Shown: positions 5,055 through 62,561, numbered from the stretch's first letter. The stretch is 64,000 bases of DNA from an uncultured Actinomycetota bacterium (GCA_963797455.1 CAWCPK010000001.1:1338155-1402154), one strand, 5' to 3'. Numbers and translations: made by a program. Notes: a model not told the origin generated them from the letters alone.

Positions 5055-5102
5055 GATCTTGTGCGGCATCCTGCGCCCGGACGCGGCATCGCGCACAAGA
5101 TC
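5055..5102. repeat. palindromic element GATCTTGTGCGG-N25-CGCACAAGATC (same family as 44781..44889)
   Basis: Perfect 11-bp arms; loop shares CTGCGCC with the other copies. Confidence 0.8.
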
Positions 5103-14571: not shown

Positions 14572-14784
14572 GCCGGACACCGGCCGGCCGGCCTGCAAGC
14601 CGCTCGCGTCGGCGGCGGCGTCCGTGCGCTTGTCCGGCCGCATGTCGCGGAATGGGGCCTGGTGCCGATCTGGCTCGTCCAGGCAGGCGCATTCCGCGCG
14701 TCCTGAAAGTCTCGCCAACCGCCCCTGTCGGCGGCGGTTCGGGTGATTTGATCTTGCCGCCGCGGAGGTACAGCGTGCCTGTCT

Positions 14785-15827
14785 GGTTCTGTACTACGCG
14801 CGTCATGCTTATCCGGTTAGGTCAGGTAGCTTGGGCAAATGCCGCGTCCTGACTTCCCCCGGACGATCGTTGAGTTCCAGCGCTGGTTTCCCGACGACGA
14901 GGCCTGCACGCAGTACCTGTTCGAGTCGCGTTGGCCGGACGGCTTCCGCTGTCCGCGGTGCGGACATGAGCACGCTTGGCCGGTGACCAAGCGCCGGGTG
15001 TTGTGGGAGTGCGCGGCCTGTCATCGGCAGACGTCGCTGACCGCGGGCACGGTGCTGCACAAGACGCGCACGCCGCTGCATCTGTGGTTCTGGGCGGCCT
15101 ACCTGATGAGCACCCCAACGCCGGGGGTGTCGGCGCTGCAGCTGCAACGCCAGCTCGGGCTGAGTCGCTATGAGACGACCTGGATGATGCTGCACAAGCT
15201 GCGCCGGGCGATGGTCAACCCCGAACGCGATCCGCTGAGCGGCGAGGTCGAAGTCGACGAGTGCTACATCGGCGGGCCCGAAGCCGGCCTGCGCGGCGGA
15301 CGCCAACATGGCGACAAAGCCCTGGTCGTGGTGGCCGTAGAGGTCCGGGGCACCGCCAGCGGCCGGGTGCGGCTGGCCGTCGTTCCCGACGCCTCCGGCC
15401 CCACCCTGACCGGCTTCGTCCGCGCCAACATCACCGCCGGCGCGATCGTGCACACTGACGGCTTCCGCGGCTACCGACCGCTGCCCAGCCACGGTTACCA
15501 GCATCGCCCGCACAGCCAACTTGCCGCTCGCGCCGCCGGTGCGGACATTGACGAGATCCTGCCCCGCGTGCACCGGGTGATCTCCAACCTCAAGAGCTGG
15601 CTGCGAGGCACCCACCGCGGCGTGTCCGGTGAACACCTACAGGTCTACCTCGACGAGTACGCCTTCCGGTTCAACCGCCGCCGCACCCCGATGGCCGCCT
15701 TCCAGACCCTGCTCGGCTTACAAGCCCAACAGCCGCCAACCACCTACCGGCAGATCGTCGCCAGACCCGAGCCCTTCCCAGCTCACCTGATCTAACCGGA
15801 TAAGCATGACGCGCGTAATACAAACCG
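14785..15827. mobile_element. IS1595-family insertion sequence (~1.04 kb)
   Basis: Terminal inverted repeats GGTTCTGTACTACGCGCGTCATGCTTATCCGGTTAG (left) and its near-perfect complement (right) bracket a single transposase ORF; no clean target-site duplication found. Confidence 0.8.
14839..15795 (+). CDS. IS1595 family transposase
   Basis: N-terminal zinc-ribbon (CPRCGHEHAW...CAAC) and DDE domain typical of IS1595/ISXO2-like transposases. Confidence 0.85.
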   Translation: MPRPDFPRTIVEFQRWFPDDEACTQYLFESRWPDGFRCPRCGHEHAWPVTKRRVLWECAACHRQTSLTAGTVLHKTRTPLHLWFWAAYLMSTPTPGVSALQLQRQLGLSRYETTWMMLHKLRRAMVNPERDPLSGEVEVDECYIGGPEAGLRGGRQHGDKALVVVAVEVRGTASGRVRLAVVPDASGPTLTGFVRANITAGAIVHTDGFRGYRPLPSHGYQHRPHSQLAARAAGADIDEILPRVHRVISNLKSWLRGTHRGVSGEHLQVYLDEYAFRFNRRRTPMAAFQTLLGLQAQQPPTTYRQIVARPEPFPAHLI

Positions 15828-15852
15828 CGACCACCACCCTCCTGCCACCGCG

Positions 15853-16688: not shown

Positions 16689-16820
16689 CCGCCGGCGGCG
16701 AGCGGGGCCGAGTCATCGTGCCGCGGTCAGCCGGCGGTGACCTCGTCAGGATGTGTTGGCCGTTGGCGCATAAATCGTGCGCCGACGTGGGCAATGAACC
16801 TGCACATGACTGCGGCGTGA

Positions 16821-16846
16821 CCGTGCGGTTCAGCTGAACCGCACGG
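16821..16846. repeat. 26-bp perfect palindrome CCGTGCGGTTCAGCTGAACCGCACGG
   Basis: Shares the core GGTTCAGCTGAACC with the palindrome at 15853..15872. Confidence 0.85.
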
Positions 16847-16928
16847 CTCGCACGCGATCTTGTGCGGATAGCTGCGCTCGAGCGCGGCGTGCTGCACCAT
16901 CGCGGATCGTCCTGCGTCGTCCGCTCAG

Positions 16929-30697: not shown

Positions 30698-31201
30698 TCA
30701 GATGACCGGCCACGCCTCCCAGTGCTCGCTCGGGGCGTAGCGGCCGCGGTAGAAGATCAGCGGATGCCGGAGCGGGTCCGAGCGCAGCGCACGCACCGCG
30801 CCGATCACGATGGTGTGATCACCGCCGTCGTACTCGGTGGCGAGCTCGCAGTCGATCCACGCCGAGACGCCCGCGAGGATCGGCGCGCCGAGCGGGCTCG
30901 GCGTCCACGCCACGGCCGCGAACCGGTCGACTCCCGGCCGGGCGAACTGCTCGCTGAGTTCGTGCTGGTCGTGGGCCAGCACGTTGACGCAGAAGCTGCC
31001 CACCTCACGGATGTGCGGCCAGGTCGTCGACGTGCGGGCCGGGTTGAAGCTGACCAGCGGCGGGTCGAGGGACAGCGACGCGAAGGACTGGCAGGTGAAG
31101 CCGAGCGGACGCTCGCCTTCCGAGGGGAACTTGCGACCCGAGCGTGCCAGAGCGGTGACCACGACGACCCCGGTCGTGAACGTGCCGAGCACCGCGCGCA
31201 T
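30698..31201 (-). CDS. flavin reductase family protein
   Basis: FMN-binding split-barrel signature GTFTTGVVVVT; start uncertain (ORF extends to 31309). Confidence 0.7.
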   Translation of the reverse strand: MRAVLGTFTTGVVVVTALARSGRKFPSEGERPLGFTCQSFASLSLDPPLVSFNPARTSTTWPHIREVGSFCVNVLAHDQHELSEQFARPGVDRFAAVAWTPSPLGAPILAGVSAWIDCELATEYDGGDHTIVIGAVRALRSDPLRHPLIFYRGRYAPSEHWEAWPVI

Positions 31202-39479: not shown

Positions 39480-41159
39480 TCAATGATCGCCGAACACGAC
39501 CTCGCCGGACGCGACGGTGCACTGCACGCGCGCATCGGCGATCCGACCGTCCAGCTCGAAGATGTCCTGGTCGAGGACGGCGAGGTCGGCCCGTGCGCCG
39601 AGCGTCAGCCGCCCGCCGTCCGCGTCGTGATTGACGTACGCCGTGCCGGACGTGAACCCGGCGAGGGCGGCGTCGAGGGACAGCCGCTCCTCGGGCAGGA
39701 ACGGGGCACCGTCGCGCCCGTCGGGGTCGACGCGCCGCACCGCGACCTCCATCTGGCGTAGCGGATCGGCGGTCGTCACCGGCCAGTCGCTGCCCATTGC
39801 CAGCCGCGCTCCGGCCCGGAGGAACGACCCGAACGGGTACTGCAGGTCGCCGCGCTCCCGGCCGATCCACGGCAGGGTGTGCTCCTCCATCTGCGGCTCG
39901 TGCTGCGCCCAGTAGGTCTGGCAGTTCGCGACGACGCCCAGTTCGGCGAACCGCGCGACGTCCTCGGGCTGCACGACCTGGACGTGCGCGATGTGGTGCC
40001 GGTTGTCCGCCGAGGGGAGCTTGCGACCCGAGCTTGTTGCAGGCCCGTTCGCCGCGCGCGCCGCCGCCACGGCATCGAGCGCGGCGCGGATCGCCCGGTC
40101 GCCGATCGCGTGCATGTGCACCTGGAAACCGAGCCGGTCGAGCTCGGTGACGGCCGGCAGCAGCAGCTCGCGATCGACGTACATCAGCCCGCGGTTGGCC
40201 GTGTGCCCGCCGCAGCCGTCGCAGAACGGCTCGAGCATCCCGGCCGTCTGGTTCTCGATGATCCCGTCGACCATGATCTTGACGGTCGTGGGGTGGAGGT
40301 TGCCGAGCGCCTGCTCGCGCTGCTCCCGGAACCCGTCGATCTGGCCGAGGTCGCCGTGCCGGTCCCACCACAGGGCGCCCACGACTCGCGCGGTGAGCCG
40401 GCCGTCGCCGGCGAGCGACCGATACGCGGCCAGCGTCGCCGGCGTGACCCAGGCGTCCTGCCAGCTCGTGATGCCCAGCGAGTGCAGGTGCCGTTGCCCG
40501 GTCAGGATCGCGTCTTCCCATTCGGCCCGGGACGGCGCCGGCACCCAGTCCGCCTCGAAGGAGTATGCGGCGCCTTCGTGCAGCATCCCGACAGGTACGC
40601 CGTCGGCGTCGCGCTCGAGCCTGCCGTCCGGCGGGTCGGGCGCGCGCGCGTCGATGCCGGCTAGGGCCAGCGCGGCGCTGTTCACCCAGGCCCCGTGCAC
40701 GTCGCGGTTGAACAGGAACGCCGGCTTGCCGACGGTGACAGCGTCGAGATCGGCGCGGTGCGGCGTGCCGCCCGGGAAGTGCTCCATCGACCAGCCGCCG
40801 CCCACCACCCATTGCGTAGCGGGGTGGTCGGCGACGTAGCGCGCGATGCGGTCGAGGTAGGCCGTCCGGCTCGTGAGGTCGCGCAGGTCGACGGTGTTCA
40901 GGTTCCGGCCCGCCTGCGGGGCGTGCACGTGGGAGTCCTGGAAGCCGGGCACGACGAGCGCGCCGGCCCGGTCGAGGACCCGCGTGCGCGGACCGATCAG
41001 CTCCCGGGCTCGGGCGCCCAGTGCGACCACCCGCCCGCCGCGGACCGCCAGCGCGTCGGAGGTCGTCCCGTCCCCGACCCAGATCCGCGAACTCAGCACG
41101 ACCAGGTCGAACTGTCCATCCACAGGATTAAGCGTATCGGCGAGGATGATGATCCTCAT
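39480..41159 (-). CDS. amidohydrolase family protein (YtcJ-like, metal-dependent)
   Basis: QDSHVH near the N-terminus, HxH.., C-terminal GSDWPV. Confidence 0.8.
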   Translation of the reverse strand: MRIIILADTLNPVDGQFDLVVLSSRIWVGDGTTSDALAVRGGRVVALGARARELIGPRTRVLDRAGALVVPGFQDSHVHAPQAGRNLNTVDLRDLTSRTAYLDRIARYVADHPATQWVVGGGWSMEHFPGGTPHRADLDAVTVGKPAFLFNRDVHGAWVNSAALALAGIDARAPDPPDGRLERDADGVPVGMLHEGAAYSFEADWVPAPSRAEWEDAILTGQRHLHSLGITSWQDAWVTPATLAAYRSLAGDGRLTARVVGALWWDRHGDLGQIDGFREQREQALGNLHPTTVKIMVDGIIENQTAGMLEPFCDGCGGHTANRGLMYVDRELLLPAVTELDRLGFQVHMHAIGDRAIRAALDAVAAARAANGPATSSGRKLPSADNRHHIAHVQVVQPEDVARFAELGVVANCQTYWAQHEPQMEEHTLPWIGRERGDLQYPFGSFLRAGARLAMGSDWPVTTADPLRQMEVAVRRVDPDGRDGAPFLPEERLSLDAALAGFTSGTAYVNHDADGGRLTLGARADLAVLDQDIFELDGRIADARVQCTVASGEVVFGDH

Positions 41160-42876: not shown

Positions 42877-42915
42877 GTCGGCACGCTACAACCGGGCCCC
42901 TCCTTCGAGCGCGAG

Positions 42916-43098
42916 CGAGGTCTGCTGCGTACCCCCGGTAGCCGGCCGGATTCGAACCGCGTCGGTTCGAGCGAGGTCTTCCGCGTACCCCCGGTAGCCG
43001 GCCGGATTCGAACCGCGTCGGTTCGAGCGAGGTCTTCCGCGTACCCCCGGTAGCCGGCCGGATTCGAACCGCGTCGGTTCGAGCGAGGGTCTTCCGCG
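42916..43098 (-). repeat. three tandem ~56-57-bp partial copies of the tRNA 3' end (acceptor 3' strand + T-loop-like GGATTCGAACC)
   Basis: Direct repeats of GCGTACCCCCGGTAGCCGGCCGGATTCGAACCGCGTCGGTTCGAGCGAGGTCTTCC immediately 3' of the tRNA. Confidence 0.85.
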
Positions 43099-43171
43099 TA
43101 CCCCCGGTCGGATTCGAACCGACACTGGGACCCTTTTAAGGGGTCTGCCTCTGCCATTGGGCTACGGGGGC
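43099..43171 (-). tRNA. tRNA (73 nt, no encoded CCA); hand-fold gives anticodon loop CUUAAAA, i.e. anticodon UAA on a class-I scaffold; identity uncertain
   Basis: Minus-strand sequence GCCCCCGTAGCCCAATGGCAGAGGCAGACCCCTTAAAAGGGTCCCAGTGTCGGTTCGAATCCGACCGGGGGTA; 7-bp acceptor stem, canonical T-arm GTCGG-TTCGAAT-CCGAC. Confidence 0.7.
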
Positions 43172-44441: not shown

Positions 44442-44765
44442 ATGGCTGTGGGTGCGAAGATCGGCTTGAAGATGATGAGCGTCGTCATCGGGATCCCCGT
44501 CGGCATCGTGACCAAGAAGGCGGTGGAGCGGACGTGGCGCGCAGCGCGGCCCGAGGACCCGCCGCGCAAGCCGTCCGAGCCAGAGGTCCGCTGGGCGGAT
44601 GCGCTCGGCTGGGCGGCACTATCCGCGGTCGGCATCGTCATCGCCGAGCTCGTGACCCGGCGCAGCGCCGAGGCGGCGTACCACGCGATCACCGGCAGCC
44701 AGCCGCCACCGCCGAAGCCCAGCAAGGACGCCAAGAAGCTCGCGAAGGCGTCCGCCGGCGCCTGA
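44442..44765 (+). CDS. DUF4235-like small membrane-associated protein
   Basis: [26 protein letters not shown]. Confidence 0.55.
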
Positions 44766-44780
44766 CCAGCGAACCGCCGG

Positions 44781-44889
44781 CGATCTTGTGCGGCCCGCTG
44801 CGCCTGAACGGTGGATGGCGCACAAGATCAATCTGAGCGCGTGATCTTGTGCGGCCCGCTGCGCCCAGGAGCAGCCTCACGCACAAGAT
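44781..44889. repeat. two tandem copies of a ~48-bp palindromic element GATCTTGTGCGG-N25-CGCACAAGATC
   Basis: Copies at 44781-44828 and 44842-44889; related copies at 5055-5102 and (degenerate) 16855-16915. Confidence 0.85.
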
Positions 44890-45064
44890 CGTCAGCTCGG
44901 TCACGATCCGAGACGCCGAGAGGTGCGAGCCGCTCGGCCACGACTCGCAGCACGCGCGGGTCGGTGCCCATGCCGGTGTGGCTCGTGGGAACCTCGACGA
45001 GACCGGGCACCGGGATGACCGGCACGAGATCAGTGGGCGCGGGCTGTGTGACCCGGCTGCCGAA

Positions 45065-45985
45065 CTAGGCGAGGCTGAGCGCGATGCCGTCGAGGATGTC
45101 GTGCTCGCTCGCGATCACGGTGTCGACGCCGGCCTCCTCGACCAGGGTGCGCAGCACGAGCGCTCCCCCGCCGATGACGTCCACCCGACCCGGGTGCATC
45201 GCCGGCAGCGCGGCGCGCTCGGCGTGCGTCATGCGCAGCAGCCGATCGGTGACCTCGTCGACCCGGCGAGCGCTGATCGGCAAGCCGTGGATGACGTCCG
45301 CGTCGTAGTGGTCGAGGCCGTGCGCGATGGCCGCGATTGTCGTCACCGTGCCGGCCACTCCGACGAACGTCGCCGTCTCGTGCAGCGGGACGTCGTGGCG
45401 GGCACGCGCGACCGCGGCGCGCACGTCGGCGACCGTCGCGTCGATCTGCCCCGGCGTCGGCGGGTCGGCGCGCAGGTGCCGTTCGGTCATCCGGACGCAG
45501 CCGACGTCCATGCTCCGTGCGCGCAACCCGCCATCGCCGTTGGGTGCGCCGAGGACGAGTTCGGTCGAGCCGCCGCCGATGTCCACGACCAGCATCGGCG
45601 CGGGCGCATCGGGCAGCACGTTCGCAGCGCCGGCGAACGTCAGCGCGGCCTCCTGGTCGCCCGTGATCACGTCGGGTTCCGCGCCGAGTTCGGCGCGCAC
45701 CATCGCGACGAAATCGGCGCGGTTGACGGCGTCCCGCGTGGCGCTGGTCGCCACCATCCGCACCCGCTCGGCACCGTGCTCACGGATCGTCGCTGCGTAA
45801 TCCGACAGCGCCATACGCGTCCGCTCGATCGCGTCAGGTGCAAGACGCCCGGTGCGATCGACACCCTGGCCGAGCCGCACGATGCGCATCTCGCGCACCA
45901 CGTCGGTGAGCCGGGCGCCGTCCGCGTCCGCGATCAGCAGCCGGATCGAGTTCGTCCCGCAATCAATGCCGGCAACGCGCGTCAT
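45065..45985 (-). CDS. ppx: Ppx/GppA family exopolyphosphatase
   Basis: GIDCGTNS actin-like ATPase start; DIGGGSTE. Confidence 0.8.
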   Translation of the reverse strand: MTRVAGIDCGTNSIRLLIADADGARLTDVVREMRIVRLGQGVDRTGRLAPDAIERTRMALSDYAATIREHGAERVRMVATSATRDAVNRADFVAMVRAELGAEPDVITGDQEAALTFAGAANVLPDAPAPMLVVDIGGGSTELVLGAPNGDGGLRARSMDVGCVRMTERHLRADPPTPGQIDATVADVRAAVARARHDVPLHETATFVGVAGTVTTIAAIAHGLDHYDADVIHGLPISARRVDEVTDRLLRMTHAERAALPAMHPGRVDVIGGGALVLRTLVEEAGVDTVIASEHDILDGIALSLA

Positions 45986-58965: not shown

Positions 58966-59926
58966 GGAGGGCCTCCAGCATGGCGGTCGTCAGCCGCTGC
59001 TCCCGGTCGGCGATGCGTCGGCCCTGGACGATATCGGCCCAGTACAGGCGCGCCTCGGCTGCGCCAGGCGCGCGCAGTCGCGCGTCGCGGCGCCTGCCGC
59101 GCAGCGCAGCAGCGGACGCGAGGAAGTACGTGGTATCCGCGTGTGGAGGCGCCCACCGCACGTCCTCCCAGTCGATCAGCCACAGCTGGCCCTGTGCGCG
59201 GCGTAGGTTCCACGGCGTGAGGTCACCGTGCGCGCCACGCCAGTGCGCAGCCGCATCCCGCGGCCTCGGAACGACTCGTTCGACCAACTCGGTGATCTCG
59301 TTGGTCAATTCGTCGGCGCAGTGCAAAACGGGTCCGTGTGGACGGCGCGCCATAACCTCGTAGCCGGTCCACGACCAGCCGCCCGCACTGCCCTCGCCGA
59401 CGAGCTGCGGCACGCGGAACCGGGCGGGCTGCTGCTCGGCAGCCGCCTGGCTGATTGCCTTCTCGGCAGCCAGCTCAGCGGCATCGCGCCGAACCCGGAT
59501 CAGCATCGGTCGCCGTGGGGTGCACAGCAGAAGAACTATCCCGGTGCGAAAGCCTTGCGGCCGGCGGTAGACGGCGAACTCCGTGCGAGCGCCGCCGATC
59601 GCCGCACGCCATTGCCGAGACAGCTCGGCGAACACGTCGGCGTCCAAGGGGGGATTCCACTGTTCGCGGACTCCCGGGACGAGCCGCATCGCGCCGGCCC
59701 GAGCGAGAACCCACGTCGCGCGCTGCAGCATCAGCGGGACGGGGCGCGACGCGGTATAGAGGGTCAGTCCGAGCGCCGCTGCCGAAGCCGGCGCCTCCGG
59801 CACGAGGACATGTCCCTGCCCTGGCGGGTACTGCACGTGGGCCACGGCATCGAGTATCTCCTGGTCAGTTTGTGAATGTGCCGATGTGGCGTGTGCCCGT
59901 GGGCACGCCGATCGCGGCGGCGACAT
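58958..59926 (-). CDS. aminoglycoside-phosphotransferase-like (APH/kinase fold) protein
   Basis: HGDLTPWNL catalytic loop and IDWE (DxE/D) motif. Confidence 0.6.
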
Positions 59927-62561
59927 CGCTCGTCAGGGGGACTGCCGCTGCGTCACCGGGTGAGGCGAGCGTTGTAGTGGAGTCCTGCAGATTCGTCCAG
60001 GTCTTGTTGAGCCCGAGGTCCAGGGCCTGCGGCGTCCGGTACTTCGTAACGGTCACATTGTCGTCCCCGCCCCACCCGACCATGACCGTGGACGTCGAGG
60101 TTGCGTAGAACTCGTTTCCGTCGATGGTCACGTTCATGTCGCGGACCGCGGTGTTGGTCGCCTTGTCGAGAGCGTAGAACTGGAACATCGCCGTGCTGTC
60201 GGAAATGTTGTCAGCGACGATGATGTTGCGCACGATCCACGGGTCGGCAGTCGAGGTCGCGGGATCGGTGTTGCGGCGAGCGTCCTGGGTAAGGCCGATG
60301 TCCCACACCGAGTTGCCGCTGAATGCGTTGTTGTAGACCTTGACATTTCCGGTATCGAATGCCGTGTAGCCGTAGTTCGCGCCGGACACGGTGTTATTGG
60401 CGACGATCCCGGTATCCGAGAGTTCGGTAATGATGCCGTACTTGCCGTCGTTCCCGGCCACCACGTTGCCGACGATGGTGAAGTGGCTGACCGTCACGTC
60501 GGTCCAGATGCCGTTCACGCCTAGGTTGTTTTGGCTGACACTGTCCCGGATCGTCACGCCGTCGGCGTTGGTCACCTTGATCCCGGCGGCCGCGGGCGCG
60601 GCGTTGAAGTGCTGAGTGTTGTTTCCCTGCATGAGCGAGTCGGCCACGAGTAGTCCACTGCCATGATTCGAGTGGATACCGGTCATCCCGTTGTCTTCGG
60701 CGGTGACGTGCACGAGACGGCAGTCGTGGGTGCCCGCCGAGATGCCCTGCGTGGCATTGTCCCTGATCACGACGTTCTCCACCACGTCGCCACCGGTGCT
60801 GCCGCCGAAGTAGACGGTCCCTATCTGCGGGAGTGAGGTCGCGTACCGGCGAACGCCGACGCCACGGAGCGTGAGCTGTCCACTCACCACGAAGGCCTGC
60901 TGCAGGTCGCTTGCCCGTACCTCGTGTCCGGCGGGATTGCTACCCATCGTGATCGTCGCCGCCGGGTAGTCGACCGCAAACTGGCCCGCGCCAGGGTTCG
61001 ACGACACCTGATCGAACTGGACGCCGTCGACGAACAACTGGTCCGGCCAAGCGGCCATCGGGTACTGCGAGTTGACGAAGCCGCCGGAGTTCGAGCCTCT
61101 GGTAAAGCTGGCCGAGTGGTCGAACTGGTAGGTCCAGCCAGCGTGGACCCAGGTCGTGCCCTGCTGGACCCAGCCGGTAACCGGCACCGATCCGTCGAAC
61201 CACGCAGCCTCGCCCGGGTAGTTCTCGATCGTCACCGTCTTCGAGACAAACAAGCCTTCGTGGTAGCTGCCGGCACGCAGGACGATCACCTGTCCGCTCG
61301 CTGCCTTTGAGACAGCGGTCTTCACCGTGCGCAGCGGGCTCGAGGCGGTCCCGGTGGCGCTGTCGTTGCCAGTGCTGGAGGAGACATAGAGCGCGTTGCT
61401 CGGCACCGGGTAGACCGCAGAACCCACCGGGAGCGATCCGGGACTCGTCGGCACCGGCGTGGGCGTCGGCGTGGGCGTCGGCGTGGGCGTCGGCGTCGGC
61501 GTCGGCGTCGGCGTGGGCGTCAGGGAGGGCGTCGGCGTGGGCGTCGGCGTGGGCGTCGGCGTCGGCGTCAGGGAGGGCGTCGGCGTGGGCGTCGGCGTCG
61601 GCGTCAGGGAGGGCGACGGCGTGGGCGTCGGCGTCAGGGAGGGCGACGGCGTGGGCGTCGGCGTCGGCGTCAGGGAAGGCGACGGCGACGGCGACGACGT
61701 GGGCGACGACGTGGGCGACGACGTGGGCGACGACGTGGGCGACGACGTGGGCGTCGGCGTCGGCGTCGGCGTGGGCGTCGGCGTGGGCGTCGGCGCTGGA
61801 CTCGACGCCTTGCGCTGCTTAGCGAGCCGCCAGGACTTGAGATTGTAGAAGCGCACCCACATCCGGTGCTTGGTGCCGGACTGGTTAGCGGCGTACACGC
61901 CGACATCGCCCGCCGCTGTGATCGCGCCGCGGGCGCGGTCGAGCGCAACGAACCAACGAGTGTGGCGCCCGCCGGGCAGCACGACGCGCGCCTTGACCAC
62001 GTCGGCGCGCGCGACCGCCTCGAGCCGTATCACCTGGCGCCCTACTGCCGGCACCCGGTGCCACGTGAGGGTGCGGGTCAGCCCGTTTCCGTCGCGGCGG
62101 GCGATCTCGAGAGCGCGCGCACCGCGTCCGGACACCCGCACGAGCACGAGGTAGCCGGCTCCGTTCGATTTCGTGCGCAGCACAATGCCGGCCGCGAATC
62201 CCCACCCTCGGACCGGCCGGACCCGCGGCGCATTCAGCACGAGTTGAGCGCGTACGTCCGCGGTGGGAGTCTTCGGCAACAGCTGCTCTATCCTACGGCC
62301 CGGAAGTAGCGCGCGGATCGACGTATAGGGACGGCGTGCGGCAGACGACGTGGCGGTTGCGCGCTGGGTAGCGCCGGCGAGCAGCACCCCCCAGTTCCGA
62401 CTTGTCGGCCGCGAGTCGGAGGCAATGTGTCGTTGCTGGGGGCTCGCCGAAGCCTCGGCAGAGAGTGCGGCTGTCGCAACCAAGGCACCTGCAATGAGGG
62501 CTGCGGCGGTCAGGAATGCGCACGTGACGCGCCTGACAACTATCGGTGGGCGGGAGGGCAC
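59865..62561 (-). CDS. secreted right-handed parallel beta-helix protein with a long Pro/Thr/Ser linker
   Basis: Signal peptide, ~110-aa PT/SPTS repeat region, C-terminal beta-helix repeats (NxxGxxxxG/VxxN periodicity). Confidence 0.7.
61430..61800. repeat. tandem 6/12-bp DNA repeats (GGCGTGGGCGTCGGCGTC...) encoding the PT linker
   Basis: Direct reading; spurious antisense GVGVGV ORFs. Confidence 0.85.

Follow-up and report, generated by a model that had tools for sequence, protein, structure and literature searches.

In the gap between two convergent genes (DUF4235 and Ppx/GppA) of an uncultured Actinomycetota bacterium, two perfect palindromes lie one behind the other, and the question raised by this locus is what such elements are and what spreads them or keeps them in place. 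The original prediction, made for the 64,000-nucleotide stretch of DNA which contains the pair (hereafter, the window), described a family of intergenic palindromes of about 48 bp and offered three readings: a miniature mobile element, a binding site, or a small structured RNA reused at several loci. The binding site and the miniature mobile element fit the data best, because the palindromes bracket a nuclease gene and because one site occupied in the window is empty in a relative. The small structured RNA is not supported, since there is no consistent strand preference and since neither a promoter-like site nor a U-tract terminator was found at the three intact copies of the window. We consider it rather probable that the 48-bp palindromes represent a REP-like family of high-GC Actinomycetota and serve as the cognate sites of a protein which joins an AbiEi-like part to a DUF559/Vsr-like nuclease.

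The family itself is real. Three perfect 48-bp palindromes of the form GATCTTGTGCG-N26-CGCACAAGATC (copies A, B, and C) can be read directly from the sequence of the window, and a fourth copy (D) is decayed (Table 1). The 11-mer, with one mismatch at most, occurs 10 times in the window against 1.25 +/- 1.1 expected, and none of 100 shuffles reached 10. In the three full copies the 11-mer arms are perfect, the total length is 48 nt, and CTGCGCC occupies an identical offset; the 12 + 25 + 11 geometry given originally amounts to the same 48-nt total as 11-mer arms around N26. Two tandem copies do lie at the place predicted (44781-44889), which was set one base too low, and the third copy was located exactly. 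The statement that all copies have perfect 11-bp arms holds for A, B, and C and fails for copy D, in which the left arm is intact and the loop contains CTGCGCT, as expected, while the right arm (CTGCACC---ATC) bears a 3-nt deletion and substitutions; this copy is also shorter here than the 16855-16915 suggested for it. The three full copies of the window were among 29 family members used to build a covariance model, which found no convincing copy in the window beyond these four.

Table 1. Positions of the palindromes and of other features in the window, counted from its first nucleotide.
Feature	Coordinates	Strand	Basis
Copy A, full, solo	5055-5102	.	sequence; covariance model, 60.8/58.9 bits
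IS1595-family insertion sequence	14772-15840	transposase 14839-15795 (+)	DDE_Tnp_IS1595 and Zn-ribbon domains
Copy D, decayed	16856-16904	.	sequence; covariance model, 20.6 bits, E = 0.02
Copy B, full, first of tandem pair	44782-44829	.	sequence; covariance model, 54.6 bits
13-nt spacer AATCTGAGCGCGT separating B and C	44830-44842	.	sequence
Copy C, full	44843-44890	.	sequence; covariance model, 55.1 bits
Remnants of an alpha/beta-hydrolase gene, intact in L037-L039	44906-45064	-	tblastn with the L037 hydrolase; alignment

Copies A-C fold individually at about -28 to -30.5 kcal/mol with z about -3.5 (copy A at -29 to -30.5 kcal/mol, with a similar z), and the + strand of copy D still folds at -32.8 kcal/mol. 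According to Pfam, copy A lies, as predicted, between a SET-domain gene and DUF2269, 16 nt past the stop of the former (5038) and 27 nt ahead of the start of the latter (5130). Copy B begins 16 nt after the DUF4235 stop (44765), and the gap that it shares with copy C is closed on the other side by the convergent Ppx/GppA gene (stop at 45065); copy D is flanked by an unassigned ORF and a convergent cystathionine-beta-synthase-like gene. The sequences which follow the window copies are ACGACGCG, AATCTGAG, and GTCAGCTC. The short spacer between B and C gives a 61-nt period, which matches the arrays in related genomes. The left halves of these two copies are identical and the right halves differ, so that copy C looks chimeric, which suggests recombination between copies. 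Directly upstream of copy D there is also a perfect 26-nt palindrome, CCGTGCGGTTCAGCTGAACCGCACGG (16820-16848), unrelated in sequence to the 48-bp family.

The element is reused beyond the window, as had been supposed. An exact-pattern scan of one genome per species gave 36 loci, with about 7 matches estimated to occur by chance, and a looser scan of soil metagenomes gave at least 120. The coherent actinobacterial set from the genome scan comprises Catellatospora, Actinoplanes, MAGs of Jatrophihabitans and Pseudonocardiales, and unclassified Actinomycetota MAGs, with a total length of 47-50 nt (nearly always 47-48). Together, the two scans contain at least 117 distinct copies in DNA of 60% G+C or more, whose named sources are Actinomycetota; among the matches listed, 101 of the 117 copies have a folding energy of -24 kcal/mol or lower, and a length of 47-48 nt is found in 92 of these 101. 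Most matches outside Actinomycetota (in proteobacteria, Acidobacteriota, and a Bacteroidota MAG) were off-register and 40-44 nt long, with one per genome, and were treated as chance.

All copies are built on a common plan: conservation covers the outer 9-11 bp, pairing persists in an inner stem which differs between lineages, and the central ~10 nt are hypervariable. In one subfamily of 18 distinct copies, conservation is 0.9-1.0 at most stem positions and 0.3-0.7 in the central ~10 nt. The CTGCGCC loop, which was originally regarded as a common mark of the family, is present in copies A, B, and C and characterises the subfamily of this genome, not the family as a whole. Inner pairs covary, with a score of 0.208 against 0.106 for shuffles and no more than 0.099 for slid partners in an alignment of 29 copies, where only the interior counts as evidence because the arms are fixed by the search pattern, and where orientation was set by folding energy, which may inflate G-U pairs and not Watson-Crick covariation. 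Compensatory changes occur within the arms as well (..GTGAG/CTCAC.., ..GCAG/CTGC..), as seen in covariance-model matches with diverged arms. Tandem arrays with a 61-62-nt period contain two copies in the window, four in L034, four in L023, and at least five in L016. Other genomes have 1-7 exact-arm copies each, far below the tens to hundreds of classical REP populations; the four copies of the window within 64 kb would imply a large palindrome population in its source genome.

Several loci show peculiar arrangements. In Actinoplanes italicus, two paralogous loci (L007, 239-492; L033, 256-500) carry three palindromes each around a common segment of ~79 nt, and the number of copies per side differs, a sign that copies have been gained, lost, or rearranged locally. 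At the end of the four-copy array in L023 (260-330), the right arm (CCGGCCGCACAAGATCCA) occurs by itself three times in a row at a ~20-nt period, suggesting slippage at the element. A metagenome contig of low GC content (41%; L143, 375-1437) has five tandem copies ~203 nt apart, with one interval of 406 nt; every copy contains a hairpin of 49 nt built on the GATCTTGTG/CACAAGATC base of the family. Finally, a Bradymonadales MAG (JBBAEA01, 48% GC) contains on five contigs (L002, L003, L008, L012, L036) a MITE-like nested-palindrome repeat of ~190 nt, in which the arms of the central hairpin (ATCTTGTGCG/CGCACAAGAT) are the same as in the 48-bp family, with a 10-mer in common. No nuclease homologue was found near these repeats, and we set them apart as a separate ~190-nt repeat, the resemblance being possibly coincidental.

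The context which connects these palindromes with a protein is a gene that they bracket. At three loci, two palindromes stand 1033-1042 bp apart around one ORF of ~300-340 aa, and the three ORFs are homologous; homologous ORFs between two copies 1014-1057 bp apart are present in L020, L092, L110, L022, and L026. Using tblastn, we found the same gene beside or between palindromes in L022 (Catellatospora sichuanensis) and, as a pseudogene, in L026, and partial palindrome-nuclease units in L124, L142, L062, and L030. The unit of ~1.0-1.1 kb is composed of a palindrome, an ORF of ~300 aa, and a second palindrome. The only gene that the palindromes bracket recurrently is this DUF559-type nuclease.

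Since exact-pattern scans ascertain the conserved base, its conservation is informative only at loci retrieved by protein and at orthologous sites. To remove this bias, eight loci (L160-L165, L168, L169) were taken by protein homology alone, from Micromonospora viridifaciens, Phytohabitans rumicis, Catellatospora aurea, three metagenome contigs, and two long assembly contigs (1.4-2.2 Mb). Behind the stop codon, a palindrome begins within 0-91 nt at every one of the eight. At six of them a second palindrome precedes the gene by 18-247 nt, counted from the called start; at some of these loci the upstream palindrome overlaps the called start, which is there probably miscalled. The palindromes are thus associated with the nuclease gene, and the base varies with the nuclease lineage. 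The canonical base is common to nuclease proteins just ~35-40% identical, and more distant lineages keep the geometry and have a different base: GATCTTCCTGCG in L168, GATCTAGTTGCG in L169, and CTCTTCGGGTGCAG in M. viridifaciens (L160). The two flanking copies in M. viridifaciens are inverted relative to each other, and comparison of the loops by hand suggests the same for L022 and L165.

No nuclease homologue was detected by tblastn within the 64 kb of the window. Most likely, its genome encodes the homologue P0256 (305 aa) outside the window; among the loci retrieved, the closest relatives of P0256 are 69-76% identical to it and are flanked by canonical GATCTTGTG palindromes. The host is a Jatrophihabitans-like actinomycete, and the Ppx of the window is 100% identical to P0001. 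The nuclease gene is chromosomal, each protein cluster is seen on few contigs, and our impression is that the gene is single-copy. Its synteny is partly conserved, as it lies near lysX in Micromonospora and Phytohabitans, and no homologue of the protein was found among the PLSDB plasmids. Two pattern matches in viral contigs are weak-folding, in DNA of 42-50% G+C, and were read as chance. In L020, L092, L164, and L169, the nuclease unit adjoins a gene for a Tam-like (trans-aconitate-type) SAM methyltransferase, which may reflect synteny alone or a functional partnership of the kind that links Vsr to Dcm.

The product of the bracketed ORF combines an AbiEi-like winged-helix DNA-binding part at the N-terminus with a DUF559/Vsr-like PD-(D/E)xK nuclease at the C-terminus. 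The first ~160 residues match AbiEi both by structure (PDB 6y8q) and by profile, including the PADLOC AbiEi profiles (up to E = 4e-11). The Pfam DUF559 model matches 46 of 60 homologues at E <= 0.1 (best E 1.3e-6), with matches of the window-lineage proteins lying below the curated threshold, and database labels for the homologues read "DUF559 domain-containing", "endonuclease domain-containing", and "very-short-patch-repair endonuclease". The partner protein has both the Vsr-like fold and the conserved acidic/His motif (YxD...ExDG..H...D..RQN): D237, E251, D253, H257, and the RQN segment are invariant or nearly so in the 60 homologues, which argues for an active enzyme. No match to Y1_Tnp was obtained for the flanked gene product. 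An AbiEii partner was found at none of the loci examined; the genes around them have housekeeping roles, and no nucleotidyltransferase is annotated among them.

Comparison of insertion-site occupancy between relatives, which had been named as a check, provides information on the history of the sites. In L037-L039 (Ppx 79% identical), the DUF4235 gene shares 4 nt with the alpha/beta-hydrolase gene and palindromes are absent; the window has ~125 nt between the DUF4235 stop and a 3' remnant of the hydrolase, with copies B and C inside. Residues 224-255 of the hydrolase match 45001-44906 and residues 36-58 match 45064-44996, while residues ~59-223 are lost; these remnants mark one edge of the site of the tandem pair and belong to its context, not to the element. 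The DUF4235-Ppx locus is therefore an occupied site in the window and an empty one in L037-L039, with boundaries blurred by the ~15-20% divergence of the genomes; palindrome loss in L037-L039, instead of a gain in the window, would be the less likely reading.

Other sites persist for a long time. L044, whose SET and DUF2269 proteins are 66% identical to those of the window, also carries a palindrome between these two genes, and its distance from the SET stop is again 16 nt. When this palindrome is compared with copy A by hand, all 22 arm bases are identical, the interior is ~46% identical, and the rest of the spacer is unalignable. The same pattern of a kept base and a scrambled interior is seen in L109, L113, and L120 (flanks 82-83% identical). 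Since neutral decay of dead mobile DNA cannot produce a base conserved beside a scrambled interior, the base must be either selected or actively restored. Long-term conservation at orthologous sites would fit a host function as well as mobility. The orthologous palindromes of L109 (573-620), L113 (4664-4711), and L120 (852-899) overlap the 5' end of an ORF whose product, as far as its N-terminal sequence can tell, resembles a UbiA/MqnP-like prenyltransferase. The left arm contains an in-frame GTG, and the 48 nt correspond to 16 codons; the element may supply the N-terminal coding region or sit inside it.

As for genomic placement, 113 of the 117 copies among the matches listed are intergenic by a simple, crude GC3-based gene caller. 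Where both neighbours could be resolved (76 copies), 32 copies occupy convergent gaps, which are enriched, 40 lie between co-directional genes, and 4 are in divergent gaps, which are depleted. The 3' end of a gene is faced by 94 of the 113 intergenic copies, at a median distance of 27 nt (interquartile range 12-111 nt). Neighbours of solo copies are functionally unrelated housekeeping genes, and no neighbour gene is common to them. The flanks show no target-site duplications or direct repeats and no conserved motif (the commonest base does not exceed 0.50). Scans for U-tract terminators and sigma-70-like promoters gave no site in the two stretches of the window which contain copies A-C. Folding energy does not favour the strand of the upstream gene in any consistent way, and because the copies disagree in this respect, RNA-specific selection is not supported. 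The earlier failure to recognise a named family was confirmed: only tRNA passes the Rfam gathering threshold in the whole window, leaving the palindromes unmatched, and a permissive search of 44700-45000 gave as its best hit a chance match to mir-4888 (15 bits, E = 5.3).

For these elements we propose a tentative scheme, which we regard as a serious possibility: they would form an unrecognised repeat system, widespread in soil Actinomycetota, in which palindromes are spread and/or kept from decay by an apparently single-copy, chromosomally inherited nuclease with AbiEi and Vsr-fold parts, which reads the half-sites and acts at the hypervariable centre. Such a system would be a PD-(D/E)xK analogue of REPIN-RAYT. 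The compact palindrome-ORF-palindrome unit (~1.0-1.1 kb) may have been the founding context of the family. The nuclease would bind the palindrome as a symmetric dimer, its DNA-binding domains reading the outer half-sites GATCTTGTG and CACAAGATC at fixed spacing and its nuclease domains cutting or nicking at or near the unconstrained centre. We infer protein binding and cleavage from the anatomy of the element, by analogy with the homing endonuclease I-Bth0305I and with the binding of inverted repeats by AbiEi antitoxins; the mode of spread or mobilisation is likewise deduced. Presumably, this interaction spreads the copies into intergenic DNA at gene 3' ends or keeps them there, and its possible outcomes are transposition-like spread, homing-like copying, or Vsr-style biased repair preserving the motif. 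As for REPs, effects on the RNA (termination, 3' stabilisation) may arise as a by-product, and they cannot explain the sequence-specific conservation of the base.

Nevertheless, the same observations can be considered from the RNA side. The palindromes could act as hairpins in the transcript, either as intrinsic terminators devoid of a U-tract ("I-shaped") or as stabilisers of mRNA 3' ends, with spread by duplication and with the nuclease gene bracketed for insulation only. Their frequent position shortly behind gene 3' ends and in convergent gaps, the stability of the hairpins (-25 to -40 kcal/mol), and the better folding of copies B and D on the strand of the upstream gene agree with this. 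However, a stable stem suffices for a terminator, and 9-11 specific base pairs identical across orders are left unexplained, as is the base kept at orthologous sites amid scrambled surroundings; moreover, folding energy has no consistent strand bias across loci, and U-tract terminators are absent around copies A-C. The base variants also differ between nuclease lineages, which could still be a secondary effect, as for REPs. All in all, we find this explanation unlikely. Even less likely, in our opinion, is a regulon controlled by the AbiEi-like protein, which would work chiefly as a transcription factor on palindromes serving as operators at many loci, its nuclease domain being inactive or irrelevant. 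AbiEi antitoxins are autoregulators which bind inverted repeats near their own genes. The N-terminal part resembles 6y8q in structure, most units have a palindrome 18-247 nt upstream of the called start of the nuclease gene, and half-sites at fixed spacing are typical of dimeric binders. Solo copies, however, overwhelmingly occupy convergent gaps and the 3' ends of genes rather than promoter regions (just 4 of 76 lie in divergent gaps), tandem arrays of 3-5 copies are not operator-like, and the near-invariance of the nuclease motif in 60 homologues argues for a working active site.

Two further explanations concern the origin of the copies. A conventional MITE, that is, the terminal inverted repeats of a DDE-type IS collapsed to 48 bp and mobilised in trans, is suggested by arms which resemble such repeats (they hold TGTG...CACA), by the dispersal of the copies, by presence/absence at one site, and by an IS1595-family transposase in the window. 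Yet the inverted repeats of this IS1595 element (14772-14827, 15785-15840) are unrelated in sequence, and the palindromes are accompanied by no transposase, no target-site duplications, and no conserved flank. In addition, the sole recurrently bracketed gene encodes a DUF559-type nuclease, which has no homologue in PLSDB, the two viral-contig matches are weak-folding DNA of 42-50% G+C, and the perfect base beside a scrambled interior is not a product of neutral decay; a MITE of this kind is therefore very improbable. That the copies are small RNA genes, or recurring instances of a cis-regulatory RNA motif, is hardly credible at all: the hairpin is conserved and its pairs covary, but Rfam has no match, copies A-C have no promoter-like site beside them, the near-palindromic element stands in both orientations relative to its neighbours, the neighbouring genes are functionally unrelated, and the copies around the nuclease gene are mutually inverted.

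Returning to a nuclease with cognate palindromes, the closest parallel is the REP/REPIN-RAYT system of Pseudomonas and E. coli, where REPs flank single-copy, vertically inherited RAYTs (PMC3116915; bioRxiv 10.1101/2021.07.10.451892). Both systems have short extragenic palindromes at gene 3' ends, often clustered, with a stem better kept than the tip, long-lived sites, and a repeat sequence which tracks the enzyme lineage; in both, the associated gene is chromosomal, syntenic within lineages, and bracketed by two inverted copies. The enzyme described here, however, is an AbiEi-wHTH protein with a DUF559/Vsr-like PD-(D/E)xK nuclease and not an HUH/Y1 transposase. The 48-bp family lacks a GTAG-type tetranucleotide at the foot, its conserved part being inside the basal stem, and it is strictly 47-48 nt long, has few exact-arm copies in most genomes, and resides in Actinomycetota. 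The palindromes are thus REP-like, yet they belong to no named family, since their features depart from those of REP-RAYT, MITEs, canonical terminators, attC sites, and Rfam families.

The nuclease part has its own relatives. I-Bth0305I, a homing endonuclease of the EDxHD/Vsr fold, is a homodimer with a footprint of about 60 bp on a pseudopalindromic site (PMC3239194), which by analogy would be a direct precedent for a dimer reading the two outer half-sites of a 48-bp palindrome whose centre is unconstrained. The gene of this enzyme lies within a group I intron, and its homing target is a single conserved gene. The nuclease gene considered here, by contrast, stands alone between complete palindromes, with neither an intron nor an intein and with no sign of multi-copy homing, and solo palindromes occur dispersed. 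With the AbiE type IV toxin-antitoxin system (PDB 6y8q), in which the antitoxin is paired in one operon with an AbiEii nucleotidyltransferase toxin, the protein described here shares the AbiEi-like N-terminal part; it differs in its nuclease fusion, in the lack of an AbiEii partner at the examined loci, and in sites which are dispersed genome-wide and mostly downstream of genes. Integron attC sites are likewise imperfect palindromes with conserved outer boxes and a variable paired centre, but the GATCTTGTG...CACAAGATC arms contain no RYYYAAC/GTTRRRY core sites, the tandem copies are just 13 nt apart, and neither an integrase nor gene cassettes occur in the contexts examined. Vsr repair is linked to the over-representation of its motifs, namely CCWGG in E. 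coli and, hypothetically, HIP1 in cyanobacteria. By the same principle, a sequence-specific Vsr-fold nuclease could preserve its recognition sequence via biased repair. This would account for a base kept perfectly next to an interior that is scrambled, and it would leave without explanation two inverted half-sites spaced by a constant 30 nt, as well as tandem arrays.

An incomplete literature search, in which DUF559-palindrome, AbiEi, Vsr-like, and I-Bth0305I topics were included, gave no description of such palindromes, and full-text occurrences of the arm sequence were unrelated primers only. So far, REP/REPIN-RAYT is the textbook example of a short-repeat population served by one domesticated enzyme, and it is essentially proteobacterial. 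If our scheme is true, this repeat-enzyme lifestyle would have evolved convergently in Actinomycetota with a mechanistically unrelated Vsr-fold nuclease. It would provide a function for the many "DUF559/endonuclease domain-containing" proteins which at present lack an assigned one and an explanation for conserved intergenic palindromes of high-GC genomes, which annotation pipelines ignore. A natural DNA-binding nuclease with a long site and half-sites at fixed spacing might also become a tool. The kept base and scrambled interior of orthologous sites make the question of selection or biased repair directly testable.

Other repeats of the window deserve mention. Imperfect inverted repeats of 56 nt, which have no relation to the palindrome family, form the ends of the IS1595 element. 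Directly next to the gene for tRNA-Leu(taa), its 3' part is repeated in tandem as three 56-nt copies with 97-100% identity (42912-43088, 43098-43171), which look like stacked attachment-site relics of integrative elements. A second conserved motif of ~30 nt, CAYGCTCGGGTCGCAAGYTCCCCTCGG, for which Rfam has no match, is present three times, at 22646-22676 (+), 31114-31153 (-), and 40005-40047 (-). Finally, a long run of 12-nt (partly 18-nt) tandem repeats at 61362-61853 is located inside a large ORF (59865-62561, - strand) and implies a repetitive protein segment.
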